Positions 5,111 through 37,533 of a stretch of 64,000 nucleotides of DNA are shown here, piece by piece. Every line of letters begins with the position of its first letter. Position 1 is the first letter of the stretch. Origin of the DNA: Myxococcales bacterium (GTDB lineage: Bacteria > Myxococcota_A > Polyangia > Polyangiales > JADJMO01); the NCBI GenBank assembly GCA_016709545.1, contig JADJMO010000002.1:289993-353992 (forward strand), given 5' to 3'. The notes under the pieces are model-generated. The model was not told the origin of the DNA. It did no database searches and saw only the letters and a list, made by a program, of their open reading frames with translations. A program made the position numbers and the translations under genes.

Positions 5111-5128
5111 GCGAGCGAAGCGAAGCAT

Positions 5129-5150
5129 CGGCCGCCTCCATGGGCGGCCG
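5129..5150. terminator. GC-rich stem-loop between convergent genes (putative bidirectional terminator)
   Basis: CGGCCGCC-tccatg-GGCGGCCG, perfect 8-bp stem 19 nt after the ABC-F stop. A near-identical element occurs at 35786-35810. Confidence 0.5.
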
Positions 5151-5167
5151 ACAAAGAATCTGTAGGG

Positions 5168-5569
5168 TCACTTCGGCGGGTCGGACTTCAGCGTGATCGT
5201 GAGCGGGTCGTTGGTGTACCCGCACCCCGCCCATGGACAGCCGCGCGCGCGGCACACCTGCCGCGGCGTGCTCCACCCGACGTCGGGAAAGTCGTGGTGG
5301 GTCTGCTCGACGCAGAAGCAGTAGGTCGACGCCATCCAGGTCTTGGTGGTGCCGGGCTGCACCTTCGCGTCGAGCAGCTTCACGTTGGCCGACGAATCGC
5401 ACGGCAACACGTAGCCCGCGGAGAGGCGCACCCGGATCGCCTTCGGGCCCACCATCACCAGCGTGACCGGCGAGGGCGGCGGAGGCGGGAACGGCCAGGG
5501 GATCGCCGCGTCCGCCGCGTCCGCCGTGAGCGGGGCAGCGAGGAGCAGCAGCGCGGCCCACGATCGCAT
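5168..5569 (-). CDS. hypothetical secreted Cys-containing protein
   Basis: ATG 5569 gives the signal peptide [20 protein letters not shown]3-rich. The longer ORF 5168..5710 adds an implausible N-terminal extension. Confidence 0.55.
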
Positions 5570-34298: not shown

Positions 34299-35756
34299 AT
34301 GGCTGACGAGTGGACACTGATGGTGCTCGACGAGAAGATCGCTCGCCGCAACGGCGTACCCCCCAAGATCCCCGTCCCGAAGGACGAAATGGCGGGCATG
34401 GCCGACGACGGAATGAGCGCCAGCAAGGTGCGGGACTGGATCACCCGCTTCATGACCCACTACGGAGACGGCGTCCGCAAGTCGGATCAAGACCTCGCCA
34501 AGAGGCTCGACGCCTACGTCGGCAAGCAAGACGCCTGGAAGAAGGCCCAGGAGGCCATCGCCAAGCACGACCTGCCCAAGGCCATCTCCTCGCTCAAGAT
34601 GGTGGTGGCGGTCGACCGTGACGACCACGTCGCGCGGCTCAACCTCGCCTCCGCCCTCGCCGCGAGCGGCGACGCGAAGACCGCGGCCGGCCACCTCGAC
34701 GCGATCCGCGTCACCTTCGAGGGCGACCCGGAGTACCACGTGATCGTCGGCCAGGTGCGCCTGAGCCAGCAGGACCGCGAGGGCGCGATCGGCGAGATGG
34801 TGCTCGCGCTCGAGGCCCAGCCCGACCACCAGGGCGCGATGGACGTGCTCAAGCAGCTCGGCGTGCTCGCCGCCATCTACGAGGACCCGCTCGACGCGAC
34901 CTCCCTCACCTACGTGCGCACGGATTCGATGCTCGACTGGCTGAAGGGCCTGTGGGTCGAGAAGAAGACGTCGGCGGAGTGGCTCCGGCTGATCGCCTAC
35001 CACGCGATGGAAGGGCGTCACGGGGCGGTCGCCCTCGCGGCCGAGCGCGCGCTCGCCACGTGCACGGACGACGAGCGGCCGAACTTCGTGCTCGCCCAGC
35101 TGCGGGCCCTCCGTGAGGGGGGCAACCCCACCGCGGCCCTGGCCCACGCCGACGAGGCGATCGCCGCGCACCCGAGCCCGGGCCTTCACGTGGAGCGCAC
35201 GCGCGCCCTCGAGGCGCTCGGCCGCAACGACGAGGCGCGCGCCGCCCTCGACGCCGCCCTGGCGCTCGATCCCGGCGACCTCGAGGCCCTCGATCTCGCC
35301 TACCTCCCGCGCGATCGCACCGACCTCGCGTCCATCGGCAAGAGCCTGCCGGCGCTCCAGGCACACGTGGAGAAGCACCCCACGAGCGCCGGCGCGCACC
35401 GCACCCTGGCTCGCGCGCAGCTCCTGATCGGCGCCGCCGAAGACGCGCTCGTCACGTTCGCCAAGGCCGTGGAGCTCGCGCCCGACGACGACGATCTGCG
35501 CTCGGAGCAGTGGACCGAGCTGATCCGCGCGCAGCAGGCGCAGCTGGTCGTCGACGCGGCCGCGAAGATCACCGACCTCGGCAAGCGCAGCTGGAAGCTC
35601 CGCTGGAACGAGGCCGAGGCGATGCTGGTCCTCGGCCGCGGGAACGAGGCCTACGCCGCGTTCGCCGCCATCAACGCCGACGAGTCGCTGCTCGTCGACG
35701 TGCGCCGCCGCGCCAAGCGCGCCGCCGAAGCCGCCCGCGGCGGCGAGAAGAAGTGA
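34299..35756 (+). CDS. tetratricopeptide (TPR) repeat protein
   Basis: 485-aa ORF, GC3-rich, with repeated A/L-rich 34-residue-like helical pairs throughout. Confidence 0.7.
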   Translation: MADEWTLMVLDEKIARRNGVPPKIPVPKDEMAGMADDGMSASKVRDWITRFMTHYGDGVRKSDQDLAKRLDAYVGKQDAWKKAQEAIAKHDLPKAISSLKMVVAVDRDDHVARLNLASALAASGDAKTAAGHLDAIRVTFEGDPEYHVIVGQVRLSQQDREGAIGEMVLALEAQPDHQGAMDVLKQLGVLAAIYEDPLDATSLTYVRTDSMLDWLKGLWVEKKTSAEWLRLIAYHAMEGRHGAVALAAERALATCTDDERPNFVLAQLRALREGGNPTAALAHADEAIAAHPSPGLHVERTRALEALGRNDEARAALDAALALDPGDLEALDLAYLPRDRTDLASIGKSLPALQAHVEKHPTSAGAHRTLARAQLLIGAAEDALVTFAKAVELAPDDDDLRSEQWTELIRAQQAQLVVDAAAKITDLGKRSWKLRWNEAEAMLVLGRGNEAYAAFAAINADESLLVDVRRRAKRAAEAARGGEKK

Positions 35757-35785
35757 GCGAAGCGAGCAGGCGAGCGCAGTGAACA

Positions 35786-35810
35786 GCGGCCGCCTCCATG
35801 GGGCGGCCGC
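35786..35810. terminator. GC-rich stem-loop after the TPR gene (same family as 5129-5150)
   Basis: GCGGCCGCC-tccatgg-GGCGGCCGC, perfect 9-bp stem 30 nt after the stop, preceded by a GCGAAGCGAGCA-type leader as at 5108. Confidence 0.5.
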
Positions 35811-35870
35811 AACAGCCATCTGAGCCGCGGCCCGCCTCGACGGCCACGCACCGAGAACCACCAGCCCGAC

Positions 35871-35895
35871 GAGGCGCCCCTCACGCGGGCGCCTC
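35871..35895. terminator. second GC-rich stem-loop in the convergent intergenic region
   Basis: GAGGCGCCC-ctcacgc-GGGCGCCTC, perfect 9-bp stem. Confidence 0.35.
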
Positions 35896-35924
35896 GCGTG
35901 CCGGCGCCGTCTCCGGATGCCTCC

Positions 35925-36715
35925 GCCGTCGACCACTGCACCAACCGCCCCCCACACGCGCGCAAGCAGGGTGGGAAAGGGCGAGGATGCCGACGCCACC
36001 TCGCAGAGACCGCAAAGACACTCCGCTGCAAGCAACGCGCGACGCCCCCGCTGGAAGCCAAGACAGCGGTCGGGCTCGTGTGAGGGCCCGCTCGTCGCCC
36101 CCTCGTCGCTACGCCTACCACCGTCCGCACCTGACCGCCCCCCCACCCGCACGCAAGCAAGGTGGGAAAGAGCGAGGACGCCGACGCCACCTCGCAGAGA
36201 CCGCAAAGACACTCCGCTGCAAGCAACGCGCGACGCCCCGCTGGAAGGCAGGACGTCGGGCTCGTGTGAGGAGGGCCCGCTCGTCGCTGCGCCTACCACC
36301 GTCCGCACCGACCGCCGGCCCCCACCCGCCCGCAAGCAAGGTGGGAAAGAGCGAGGACGCCGACGCCACCTCGCAGAGACCGCAAAGACACTCCGCTGCA
36401 AGCAACGCGCGACGCCCCCGCTGGAAGGCAGGACGTCGGGCTCGTGTGAGGGCCCGCTCGTCGCTGCGCCTACCACCGTCCGCACCGACCGCCGGCCCCC
36501 CACCCGCGCGCAAGCAAGGTGGGAAAGAGCGAGGACGCCGACGCCACCTCGCAGAGACCGCAAAGACACTCCGCTGCAAGCAACGCGCGACGCCCCCGCT
36601 GGAAGGCAGGACAGCGGTCGGGCTCGTGTGAGGGCCCCCCGGTCTCTGCGAGGTGGCGTCGGCGCCCGCAGCGGTGTCGCACCCAGCACCCCGCGCGCCC
36701 GAGGTGGCGTCGGCG
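35925..36715. repeat. non-coding tandem array: ~4 copies of a ~180-bp unit plus a terminal inverted 25-bp core
   Basis: Units start at 35962, 36153, 36332 and 36510 (periods 191, 179, 178 bp), with a partial leading unit from ~35925. Units 2-4 differ only by small indels that are not multiples of 3. Inverted core at 36640-36664; a 15-nt partial copy at 36701-36715. Confidence 0.9.
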
Positions 36716-36744
36716 GTCGCCACTGCGAGGCGCGAAGGTGGTCG

Positions 36745-37533
36745 TCAGCCGCCGAAGCCCGCGTCCGGCAGAGGTGGAGGCGTTCCCGGCCCGCCGCCCG
36801 GCCCGCCGCCGGGACCACTCGGCAGGCACGCGCGGATGCCGAGGCCGATCGGCTGGCACCGCTGTCCGGTCGGGCACTCCGCGTCCGTCGTGCAGAGGCG
36901 CGCGCTCCCGCCGCCACCCGGGGTCGGACCGCTGCCGCAGGTCGACGCGCACTTGGCGCTCCCGCCCGTGGTGCCGATCGTGAGGCAGCAGACCTGTCCG
37001 GTGGGACACGCCGCGCCGCTCGAGCACGAGAGGGTCACGCCGCCACTGCAGGTGCCCTTCGTCTTGCAGCTCGCCGTCGCGCCACCCGGTCCGCCCGTCG
37101 CGACGCAGCACTCCTGCGTGGCCGAGTCGCAGGTGGCGCTGCCGCAGGTGATCGGCTTCGGCCCGCTGTCCACGCCGGTGTCCGTCGGAGGCACGCCGGT
37201 GTCCGTCGGCGGCACGCCGGTGTCCGTCGGCGGCACGCCGCTGTCCGTCGGCGGCAGGCCGGTGTCGAACGGGGGCGGCACCGCGCTGTCGGAGACGATT
37301 GCGTCGGGGAAGCTGATGTCCTCCGGGAAGACGTCGACAGCGATCGCGTCCTCACCAGCCCCCGTATCGGCAAGGCTGGTGTCGAACGTCGAGTCCGTCG
37401 ACCCGTCGACGGCGCTGTCGCCGAGCGCGCCGTCGTCCACGGGGAGATCGTCGAACGCGGTGCGGGCGCCACAGCCGACGAGCGGCAGGACCCACAACAA
37501 GGTTCCGAAGCGCAAGGTTCCTAAGCGGTTCAT
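36745..37533 (-). CDS. Cys-rich secreted lipoprotein with acidic (GVPPTDT)n region
   Basis: ATG 37533 preceded by AGGAGA. MNRLGTLRFGTLLWVLPLVGCG lipobox. 21-bp repeat x4 at ~37171-37255. C-terminal half has 16+ Cys. Confidence 0.8.
   Translation of the reverse strand: MNRLGTLRFGTLLWVLPLVGCGARTAFDDLPVDDGALGDSAVDGSTDSTFDTSLADTGAGEDAIAVDVFPEDISFPDAIVSDSAVPPPFDTGLPPTDSGVPPTDTGVPPTDTGVPPTDTGVDSGPKPITCGSATCDSATQECCVATGGPGGATASCKTKGTCSGGVTLSCSSGAACPTGQVCCLTIGTTGGSAKCASTCGSGPTPGGGGSARLCTTDAECPTGQRCQPIGLGIRACLPSGPGGGPGGGPGTPPPLPDAGFGG

Follow-up and report, generated by a model that had tools for sequence, protein, structure and literature searches.

In gamma- and alpha-proteobacteria, small palindromic repeats between genes have been studied extensively. 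A REP arm is an imperfect palindrome of 20–40 nt, usually with a GTAG or CGTC tag, the cognate RAYT gene is flanked by repeats, and elements of the REP/REPIN type are thought to act as terminators, as blocks to 3' exonucleases or as RNase III sites. Correia/NEMIS and ERIC elements are intergenic palindromes of about 100–150 bp, present in hundreds of copies, with conserved terminal repeats and (Correia) TA target duplications; they are co-transcribed with their neighbours and folded into long hairpins, which RNase III cleaves or which affect mRNA stability and termination. The pneumococcal BOX element is modular, with a repeated 45-nt boxB, and the MIRU, a mycobacterial VNTR, lies between genes of one operon and is not built around a long inverted repeat. 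Typical intrinsic terminators have stems of 5–15 bp and loops of 3–8 nt. Tandem arrangement was described in P. fluorescens SBW25, with clusters of up to four near-identical REPINs covering >700 bp and with REPs repeated every 184 bp (Bertels and Rainey 2011, PMC3116915), and BrickBuilt of Porphyromonas gingivalis is a bacterial MITE with internal tandem repeats of a 23-nt brick (PMC4596501). No description of small palindromic intergenic repeats in myxobacteria was found in literature searches.

The sequence described here was found in the window, i.e. the whole 64-kb stretch of DNA analysed, and in contigs of related assemblies (designated by L numbers). It resembles REPs and REPINs in being extragenic and non-coding, in lying at gene 3' ends and persisting at orthologous sites, in having two inverted arms with a spacer of about 70–110 bp, a long hairpin and a small imperfect palindrome per arm region, and in forming tandem arrays (184-bp REP period in SBW25, ~180-bp units here). 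With Correia/NEMIS and ERIC it shares the character and the size of an intergenic palindromic repeat that is probably co-transcribed into a long hairpin, but a high copy number, TA duplications and terminal repeats could not be demonstrated for it. MIRUs are comparable as intergenic tandem repeats, with units of tens of bp up to around a hundred, at several loci and with a copy number that varies by strain, as it may here; unlike MIRUs, which lie within operons, the element is built around a long inverted repeat. BrickBuilt and BOX are likewise species-restricted intergenic elements of leader, repeated middle module and tail, with inverted-repeat ends and a module number that varies between copies and strains, but the module here is ~180 nt and includes one hairpin arm, compared with the 23-nt brick and the 45-nt boxB, and neither a terminal inverted repeat nor a target duplication of the MITE kind was definable. 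Coordinates of all features are given in Table 1.

Table 1. Features of the array, the hairpin element and the adjoining genes, and occurrence of the element at three loci (window positions unless a contig is named).
Feature	Position	Strand	Description
TPR-repeat protein gene	34299..35756	+	Pfam TPR_14/TPR_19 and related families; codon-position GC 0.74/0.45/0.95; left convergent neighbour
G+C-rich hairpin GCGGCCGCC-N7-GGCGGCCGC	35786..35810	+	just past the TPR stop; from sequence and fold
Second terminator-like hairpin GAGGCGCCC-N7-GGGCGCCTC	35871..35895	+	TPR side; from sequence and fold
Unit 1	35940..36130	+	191 nt: small hairpin, left arm 35985–36012 (27/28), core, junction; most diverged unit
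Unit 2	36131..36309	+	179 nt; left arm 36176–36203
Unit 3	36310..36487	+	178 nt; left arm 36355–36382; core with 4-nt (AGCG) deletion
Unit 4, start	36488..36532	+	junction and small hairpin CCCACC-N13-GGTGGG, then AAAGAGCGA
Left arm of complete hairpin	36533..36560	+	GGACGCCGACGCCACCTCGCAGAGACCG; inverted repeat of 28 nt, 96% complementary, 79 nt between arms
Conserved core	36561..36639	+	79 nt
Right arm 1	36640..36667	+	reverse complement of left arm; covariance-model match 36533–36667, 165.6 bits
Right-arm tail and truncated second right arm (36700–36720)	36668..36720	+	
Cys-rich lipoprotein gene	36745..37533	-	from translation; also called as a gene in L014; last after tssB, tssC
Locus A (T6SS-side spacer)	window; also L007, L014, L002		
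Locus B	L006 1190–1444; L012 about 5125–5365		after PAS histidine-kinase/receiver gene
Locus C	L008 3589–3765; L012 6528–6704		after thiolase gene

Four head-to-tail units occupy the convergent spacer between the TPR gene and the gene that closes a T6SS cluster. The original prediction had placed four tandem ~180-bp units there, and these were recovered both by Tandem Repeats Finder (36097–36637, period 178, 3.0 copies, 95% matches) and by repeat finding on the window; the spacing of 191, 179 and 178 bp was reproduced in a different phase (starts 35940, 36131, 36310 and 36488). A 24-mer and a 34-mer derived from the unit each occurred four times on the + strand (0 expected in dinucleotide-preserving shuffles), and a covariance model run with filters off detected no further copy in the window. 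Units 2–4 were 92–96% identical, the differences being mostly indels of 1, 2, 3 and 4 nt with one mismatch per pair, and unit 1 was 84–86% identical to units 2 and 3 and 94% identical to unit 4. The canonical core was kept in unit 4, and indels were located in the cores of the extra units. Relative to the canonical core, that of unit 2 had deletions of 1 and 4 nt and an insertion of 3 nt; in the relative L002, the core of a non-terminal unit had a 14-nt duplication and a 12-nt deletion.

The units are non-coding, as had been predicted. GC content by codon position was flat (0.72/0.70/0.74 vs 0.74/0.45/0.95 in the TPR gene), the indels break any reading frame, and a six-frame translation search against 5.8 billion clusters returned no protein homologue. 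A coding repeat or pseudogene was rejected on these grounds and for want of a Pfam match. A CRISPR-like array was also discarded, the units being contiguous, near-identical and without spacers.

Every unit contains a 28-nt segment that recurs as its reverse complement at 36640–36667, with a partial second copy at 36700–36720. Both inverted segments had been overlooked originally. The inverted repeat 36533–36667 was the best in the whole window, and only unit 4 together with 36640–36667 forms a complete hairpin there (28-bp stem around the 79-nt core); units 1–3 add a leader, left arm and core but lack the partner arm. In L007, L014, L006 and L012, the second right arm is complete and the right arms repeat with a period of 61 nt. 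The complete element is composed of a short hairpin-containing leader, the 28-nt left arm, the 79-nt core and one or two right arms. The units of the array are tandem partial duplications (left arm and core) of a larger non-coding palindromic element. Of the small hairpins reported at the outset, GCGAGG-N12-CCTCGC and CCCACC-N13-GGTGGG, both are present in the sequence; the former overlaps the left arm, as an imperfect counterpart does the right arm. What had been described as a partial leading unit was merely a weak resemblance to the inter-unit junction.

The convergent gap of about 990 bp predicted next to the T6SS locus measured 988 nt (35757–36744) and is bounded by two convergent stops. 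On the minus strand, the gene order is tssK-L-M-A-B-C (TssC and TssB by Pfam matches), followed by the Cys-rich lipoprotein gene, for whose product an exact look-up found no identical record. Only 24 nt separate the lipoprotein stop from the truncated right arm, and 77 nt separate it from the full one, so the lipoprotein transcript would run into the hairpin. On the other side, orthologues of the TPR gene were present in L002, L003, L004 and L005, and the hairpin at 35786–35810 is the TPR gene's own terminator-like structure. Convergent partner genes have hairpins of their own both in the window (this one and that at 35871–35895) and in L006 (994–1027). The window contained no tRNA or tmRNA genes.

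The same geometry, inverted arms around a core, was found at loci A, B and C in related Polyangiales assemblies. At all three, the element lies within ~80 nt past the stop codon of an unrelated gene (lipoprotein, kinase or thiolase), and the mRNA strand of the upstream gene has the same form of the core (3/3), an agreement with a p of only 0.25 given the first locus. The element is single-copy at loci B and C, with a single left arm. Homology between loci A and B reaches ~33 nt past each perfect arm into a degenerate, partly complementary region, and the true ends are not fixed. An invertible switch was unsupported, as the orientation of the core relative to the flanks was constant in all assemblies of each locus and no recombinase gene lies nearby. 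These three loci, counted from contigs, are the total known. As far as could be searched, the element family appears to be confined to a small clade of uncultured Polyangiales. An exact 58-mer had no match in genome contigs, and phage and plasmid collections gave no blastn match to the element. A 17-mer match in a viral contig was dismissed as chance, in an unrelated context. Among distant kinase homologues (49–51% identity), one had a different neighbourhood and lacked the element. L006 and L008 were ~86% identical where the window and L002 were ~95% identical, and the two MAG-85 contigs may not derive from one organism.

Two subtypes of the hairpin were distinguished, subtype 1 at loci A and B and subtype 2 at locus C, and their cores are ~90% identical. 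Over six hairpins, 97.9% of the stem cells were paired, compared with just 36–51% in controls in which the partner was slid by 1–3 columns. Between the subtypes, 9/28 stem pairs had changed, in every case at both partners; 10/28 arm positions differed, and 18 pairs never varied. Seven of the nine double changes swap GC with CG or AU with UA, and there are hardly any G.U pairs, a pattern that fits maintenance of a palindrome at the DNA level better than stepwise RNA compensation. The sole non-Watson-Crick stem position of subtype 1 is A.C on the + strand and G.U on the minus (mRNA) strand.

Orthologous copies were then compared with their surroundings. At locus B, the arms of L006 and L012 were identical at 28/28, 28/28 and 27/28 positions (83/84) and the cores at 75/79, with a difference of 27.1% at third codon positions of the histidine-kinase gene and of 11% in the flanking spacer; ≤4 differences over 135 nt would arise with a probability of 8e-14 if the rate were 0.27 and of 6e-4 if it were 0.11. 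At locus C, the orthologous arms were identical at 31/31 and 31/31 positions (62/62) and the cores at 72/79, with 84% identity in the flanking spacer. These comparisons show the hairpin to be under strong sequence constraint. A plain terminator does not account for a core that is 91–95% conserved, nor for arms that are invariant and not merely complementary. Both features suggest that a protein or a partner nucleic acid recognises the sequence specifically.

Such recognition could be imagined in an iteron-like form, with a motif of 24–28 bp, present in four direct and one or two inverted copies, binding a regulator, a nucleoid protein or a partition protein. We consider this very improbable: the arm sequences are invariant between orthologues, the motif occurs in direct and inverted orientation and the spacing of 178–179 bp is arithmetically close to 17 helical turns, but the subtypes have different arms around the same core, the other loci have one left arm, no DNA-binding protein gene is consistently adjacent, and arm complementarity was kept through nine double changes, which would require both half-sites to change together. 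A more ambitious proposal is a new functional module of the Polyangiales, in which the 79-nt core, presented on a perfectly paired stem of 28–49 bp at the 3' ends of selected operons including a T6SS cluster, would be specifically recognised by a dedicated protein or partner RNA and a variable number of unpaired left arms would tune activity. It might then serve as an RNA processed from the 3' UTR, as a control element that depends on RNase III or, at the DNA level, as the site of a domesticated recombinase. This proposal is tentative, and on the present comparisons we hold it to be doubtful. The core conserved while the arms co-vary, the arms invariant across orthologues that are distant at silent sites, and the tandem amplification of one arm with the core form an unusual trio.

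It is unlikely that the element is a structured regulatory RNA, with a functional 79-nt core clamped by a long processing stem and an array of sRNA or sponge copies. Such an RNA could explain that the core is kept across subtypes while the arms change with compensation and that, in orthologues, it has changed less than the spacer around it. It could also explain the folding z-scores of -4 to -5 (both strands) and four terminator-like sites (1.1 expected), one in each unit, although these are just weak 5-bp sites inside the core on the minus strand. The core helices predicted, however, differ between copies and subtypes, and substitutions break them on either strand; GGA motifs are not conserved, the cores of extra units have indels, and the element occurs singly at loci B and C. 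With E limits of 10 for the window and 5 for L012, Rfam gave no match and nothing that came near a gathering score, and a scan covering promoters of the sigma-70 type alone found none in 35500–37000. The idea of an array of independent sRNA genes, one of three options raised originally, was not supported, in view of the missing per-unit promoters and Rfam matches, the core helices not being kept and the single copies elsewhere. A CsrA-type sponge was rejected, as the GGA motifs of the putative loops are mutated in unit 1 and L007. A retron msr-msd was rejected (79 nt between the arms is too short, no reverse transcriptase lies nearby and Rfam gave no msr match), as was a sigma-54 promoter in the core, whose spacing was off by one upon sequence inspection.

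Among those three options, which also included protein-binding sites, a recently amplified mobile or REP-derived element came closest, in that a dispersed palindromic element is present at at least three loci. "Recently" is only partly right: it agrees with units 2–4, but unit 1 has diverged from units 2 and 3, and a relative at 8% synonymous divergence has at least two units. A purely selfish, non-autonomous MITE- or REPIN-like element without host function, whose inverted arms of 28–31 nt would be recognised by a transposase encoded elsewhere, is rather unlikely. Copy identity would then stem from recent transposition or gene conversion, and the array from local amplification. The subtype-1 hairpins of loci A (window) and B (L006) were identical at 135/135 positions, arms included, and the element was absent from locus A of L003. 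At locus C, the point at which L009 diverges from L012 coincides exactly with the edge of the proximal arm. Invariance of the arms would be expected of a protein-recognised end, the small imperfect palindrome in each arm region is REP-like, and short-read contigs end at the element.

No consistent target-site duplication and no direct repeat common to the flanks of loci A, B and C were seen, and the inverted repeat is not at the extreme ends of the shared sequence. Orthologous copies were far more conserved than synonymous sites, unlike a dead insertion, and copy density was low, the 64-kb window having one locus and another 10 kb of MAG-85 having none. No transposase was detected in the Pfam-scanned window genes (~7 kb on the upstream side of the array and 15 kb on the downstream side), in the three L006 genes scanned or among the called genes of L012 and L015, and a RAYT (Y1 transposase) gene was likewise missing from the Pfam-scanned genes around the array and on L006 and from the called L012 and L015 genes. 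In L012, a 272-aa gene lies between two inverted copies of the element; its product has a signal peptide and lipobox and matches no Pfam family, and a transposase at this place was ruled out, the product being a lipoprotein and not a DNA transposition enzyme. L009 as an empty site of locus C was suggestive but was set aside, as it is a 1-kb k-mer contig that may be chimeric. The element further departs from described REPs and REPINs in several ways. Copy number appears low, with three loci known here compared with tens to hundreds of REPIN copies; there is no GTAG tag, CGTC lies in a loop and not at an end, and stem and loop sizes are unlike those of CGTC families. Moreover, the core is conserved between subtypes and the arms differ, the reverse of REPINs, and the array repeats one arm with the core instead of whole doublets.

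The number of units at locus A was four in the window, two in L014, at least two in L007 and L002, and zero in L003. L014 is an independent assembly of the same species, 99.2–99.4% identical to the window and built with k=141. Its two-unit allele could be a short-read collapse, and its hybrid junction is at least a real sequence difference from the window. Five contig ends were located in or beside the element, and two further short-read contigs of the same species break at the array (L001 directly after the TPR stop, L007 inside unit 3). Short-read assemblies of these genomes break at the element, so copy numbers taken from metagenome-assembled genomes should be distrusted. That the count of four is itself an assembly artefact, by expansion or mis-join of a shorter array, is quite improbable. 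The two units of L014 and the short indels between units 2–4, some in C runs and typical of long-read errors, would be compatible with it, but the units are distinguished by 3- and 4-nt variants, the unit-3 variant GACGTCGGG is also present at the start of the independent contig L007, an assembly at k=141 would collapse near-identical 178-bp units, the short-read contigs break exactly at the array and L002 also has at least two units.

The reading we prefer, with a probability of about 0.5, is a lineage-specific REPIN- or MITE-like hairpin that probably acts as an RNA hairpin at 3' ends and whose left half was amplified by slippage. In the window, the tssBC-lipoprotein transcript, read on the minus strand, would run into the hairpin, which most likely acts on the RNA 3' end of the upstream gene, perhaps as a terminator, as a block to 3' exonucleases or as an RNase III site. 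As in intrinsic terminators, a G+C-rich hairpin follows the stop of the upstream gene within ~80 nt and on that gene's strand (in the window, the full right arm is 77 nt away), but it has a stem of 28–49 bp and a 79-nt loop. Downstream of the stem, subtype 1 has an only weakly U-rich tail (UCGCUCUUUCCC), and the tail of subtype 2 (UCUCGGGAGC) is not enriched in U; judged from its sequence, the hairpin is not a canonical intrinsic terminator, the U tract being weak or absent. The array probably arose near the long palindrome, through slipped-strand mispairing or unequal recombination; it would vary between strains, its extra units gathering lesions as a by-product and not as a functional array. 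Such tandem units had originally been called unusual, a word that applies to the hairpin element and not to the tandem array as such. If the hairpin is indeed a 3'-end or stability determinant of the T6SS sheath-gene transcript, the number of units or arms in a strain would be a simple source of expression differences.

Other small repeats were observed around the hairpins: besides the 61-nt duplication of the right arm, there is a 17-nt microsatellite in L006 and a 12–13-nt microsatellite in L002, and in the relative L003 the counterpart of the TPR-side hairpin at 35786–35810 is amplified as a 71-bp tandem array.

The spacer of 988 nt between the stop codons of the TPR gene (35756) and the Cys-rich lipoprotein gene (36745) was confirmed to hold four head-to-tail units of about 180 bp, as had been claimed. 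Tandem Repeats Finder reported an array with a period of 178, 3.0 copies and 95% matches, a repeat finder recovered four copies spaced by 191, 179 and 178, and a 24-mer and a 34-mer from the unit each occurred 4 times, with no occurrence in shuffles. Pairwise identity among units 2–4 was 92–96% (one mismatch per pair, plus indels of 1–4 nt), and unit 1 was 84–86% identical to units 2 and 3. The unit was also rightly called non-coding: GC content by codon position in the array region was 0.72/0.70/0.74, i.e. without codon periodicity (TPR gene 0.74/0.45/0.95), the region had no Pfam match, and its six-frame translation had no relative in any frame among 5.8 billion protein clusters. The flanking TPR, T6SS and Cys-rich lipoprotein genes of this uncultured member of Polyangiales were as stated, using Pfam and translation.

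The original prediction was accurate on the array but incomplete, as it overlooked an inverted arm directly after unit 4. This arm is the reverse complement of a 28-nt segment common to all units (GGACGCCGACGCCACCTCGCAGAGACCG), and a second inverted copy follows as a remnant of 16–21 nt. Unit 4 and the inverted arm form a 28-bp stem enclosing 79 nt, by far the top-ranked inverted repeat within the 64-kb window. In units 1–3 the left arm and the 79-nt core are present without a partner arm.

Coordinates of features in the window and on contigs of other assemblies (L002–L012)
Feature	Location	Strand	Evidence or sequence
TPR protein gene	left neighbour of array	+	Pfam, translation
Terminator-like hairpins of the TPR gene	window 35786–35810, 35871–35895	+	sequence, fold
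Starts of units 1–4	window 35940, 36131, 36310, 36488		repeat finder
Tandem array	window 36097–36637		Tandem Repeats Finder
Stem part identical in both subtypes	window 36545–36552, 36648–36656; L008 arms		CCTC paired with GAGG
Full right arm	window 36640–36667
Truncated second right arm	window 36700–36720
tssK, tssL, tssM, tssA, tssB, tssC, then Cys-rich lipoprotein	right neighbours of array	-	Pfam, translation
21-bp coding tandem repeat	window 37171–37266
A+T-rich 13-bp perfect palindrome	L006 994–1027 (feature region 980–1040)		GCACGAATGTAAA-N7-TTTACATTCGTGC
17-nt microsatellite	L006 1086–1162		GAGGACGCCGAACGTGT
12–13-nt microsatellite	L002 11697–11797		CACCGCACC(C)GAT
Tandem 71-bp units	L003 (CAZUZY010000162.1) 11454–11900
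Gene bracketed by two hairpins	L012 5125–6704
Divergence at locus C	L009 1–66, L012 6546–6560

The hairpin element (leader, left arm, core and one or two right arms) is non-coding, dispersed and palindromic. Dispersed copies were found using a 22-mer from the arm, which matched two metagenome contigs. One (L007) is the window's own spacer (locus A) in a strain 99.4% identical; its sequence begins within unit 3 and includes two complete right arms spaced by 61 nt. The other (L006) holds locus B, flanked by a 274-aa lipoprotein gene and, convergent to it, a PAS histidine-kinase/receiver gene; the element there has a single left arm, the core and a pair of right arms, and ends 3 nt from the kinase stop codon. 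Locus B was also present on L012, a contig from another sample whose organism is 88.5% identical to that of L006, and about 1.2 kb from it lies locus C, after a thiolase gene. The bin MAG-85 contained locus C (L008) and locus A with at least 2 units (L002). Covariance-model searches detected no further hairpin copies in the window or in 10 kb more of MAG-85 (filters off), nor, under default filters, in the remaining ~113 kb of retrieved loci.

On L012, hairpins of subtype 1 (the form at loci A and B) and subtype 2 (the form at locus C) bracket a 272-aa lipoprotein gene in inverted orientation, with the look of a composite element. The 272-aa protein was rejected as a transposase, having a signal peptide, a lipobox, PD40/TolB-like motifs and only 5 homologues. 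A Logan contig of 1 kb (L009) with 97.9% identity to L012 stops matching it, at locus C, precisely where the proximal right arm has its outer edge; this is either a presence/absence polymorphism of the element or a chimeric k-mer contig.

Position and orientation past stop codons were fixed at the three loci. The element starts no more than ~80 nt past the stop codon of the lipoprotein (A), kinase (B) or thiolase (C) gene, and in the window the lipoprotein stop lies 24 nt from the truncated second right arm and 77 nt from the full one. On the sense strand of the abutting gene the core has the same form at all three loci, the reverse complement of the window plus strand. Convergent partners have terminator-like hairpins of their own, two after the TPR gene and an A+T-rich palindrome after the 274-aa lipoprotein gene, so the element goes with the adjoining gene, which in the window is the Cys-rich lipoprotein gene ending the T6SS cluster. 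The A+T-rich palindrome is flanked by AATTTTT and AAAATTT although the genome is 70% G+C, is conserved in three assemblies (L006, L010 and L012), and may be a terminator or a protein-binding site. On the mRNA-sense strand the stem is followed by UCGCUCUUUCCC in subtype 1, and no U-rich tail was found past the stem in subtype 2.

At locus B, third codon positions of the kinase gene differ by 27.1% between L006 and L012 and the neighbouring spacer by 11%, whereas the arms are identical at 28/28, 28/28 and 27/28 positions and the core at 75/79. With the synonymous rate, ≤4 differences in 135 nt would arise with a probability of 8e-14, and with the spacer rate, of 6e-4. At locus C (L008 against L012), two 31-nt proximal arms are identical, with 72/79 in the core and 84% in the flanking spacer. 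Because arms and core differ less than synonymous sites and flanking spacer, these comparisons indicate that the complete hairpin is under purifying selection, or held uniform by some active process, and is not a decaying insertion. The extra units, by contrast, have altered cores: those of the window have indels of 1, 3 and 4 nt, whereas unit 4 matches the L006 copy at all 135 nt, and in L002 14 nt are duplicated and 12 nt deleted in the core of the non-terminal unit.

Judging from the alignments, the stem is preserved across subtypes and its sequence constrained between orthologues. Locus C cores are about 89–91% identical to the window core, and the arms there differ from those of the window (49 nt long, 88% complementary). 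When six hairpins were aligned without gaps, pairing across the 28 proximal positions of the stem was 97.9%. In nine pairs both partners had changed, and in no pair just one; sliding the partner by 1–3 columns as a control gave 36–51% pairing. The nine double changes represent few events, since they reflect a single split between the subtypes. Flips of GC/CG or AU/UA account for 7/9 of them, and there are hardly any G.U pairs, a pattern closer to DNA-palindrome maintenance, or to selection for perfect pairing, than to RNA compensation in steps. The one non-Watson–Crick position in subtype 1 is stem position 3, an A.C on the plus strand that becomes G.U on the minus. The CCTC/GAGG part of the stem is extended to CACCTC/GAGGTG in subtype 1 and CCTCCTCC/GGAGGAGG in subtype 2, so that in both an anti-Shine-Dalgarno-like run pairs with, and thereby sequesters, a Shine-Dalgarno-like run. 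The latter is not followed by a start codon, and the pairing may be a coincidence of G+C-rich DNA.

One half of the element has been tandemly amplified, and variably so: the locus A spacer differs in every relative. L014, 99.2–99.4% identical to the window, has 2 units, a hybrid junction and two right arms, although its assembly with 141-mers could have collapsed units 2–4, which limits the comparison with the window's four. In L002, about 8 copies of a microsatellite fill the unit 1/unit 2 junction. In L003, a relative whose third positions diverge by 17.5%, the orthologous spacer lacks the ~180-bp unit; it holds five or more tandem copies of a 71-bp unit, interrupted by an N gap, and this unit begins at the TPR stop codon and includes the TPR terminator hairpin. 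The spacer has thus undergone a separate amplification of another kind. Just upstream of the element at locus B, the 17-nt microsatellite has about 4.5 copies in L006, one in L010 and about two in L012, and reads like a collapsed unit junction, with the core end (CGTGTGAGG) fused to the left-arm start (GAGGACGCCGA). Five short-read contig ends from four data sets lie in or beside the element (ends of L001, L002 and L010, starts of L006 and L007), pointing to repeated copies in those genomes and to the element as a cause of broken assemblies in this clade.

The closest known kind are REPINs and their tandem clusters in Pseudomonas fluorescens, in which up to four REPINs form arrays longer than 700 bp and REPs are arrayed with a period of 184 bp (PMC3116915), followed by minisatellite-containing MITEs such as BrickBuilt (PMC4596501). 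Membership in either is not established. Unlike in REPINs, copy number is low and the spacer rather than the arms is the conserved part, and unlike in REPs, the arms are without the described tags and geometry. Target duplications were not found at the copies at loci A, B and C, nor a cognate transposase among the genes examined near them, and nothing relevant was found in the literature on such repeats in myxobacteria.

The hairpin would work on the transcript 3' end of the gene upstream, serving termination, exonuclease protection or RNase III processing, roles proposed for REP-type elements (PMC3733652). A simple terminator fails to explain the invariant arm sequence and conserved core. A dedicated protein may recognise them, be it a regulator or, by analogy with REPIN/RAYT systems, a transposase; alternatively, the hairpin may yield a processed RNA. 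The long palindrome may promote slippage and unequal exchange, with the tandem units as the product and units 1–3 as probable by-products. Taken alone, the array is an ordinary variable minisatellite that arose from a repeat element; the underlying hairpin represents a previously undescribed, constrained family. A further tandem repeat lies within the Cys-rich lipoprotein gene, where 4.6 copies of a 21-bp coding unit encode PPTD(T/S)GV repeats, with a more diverged version in L003.
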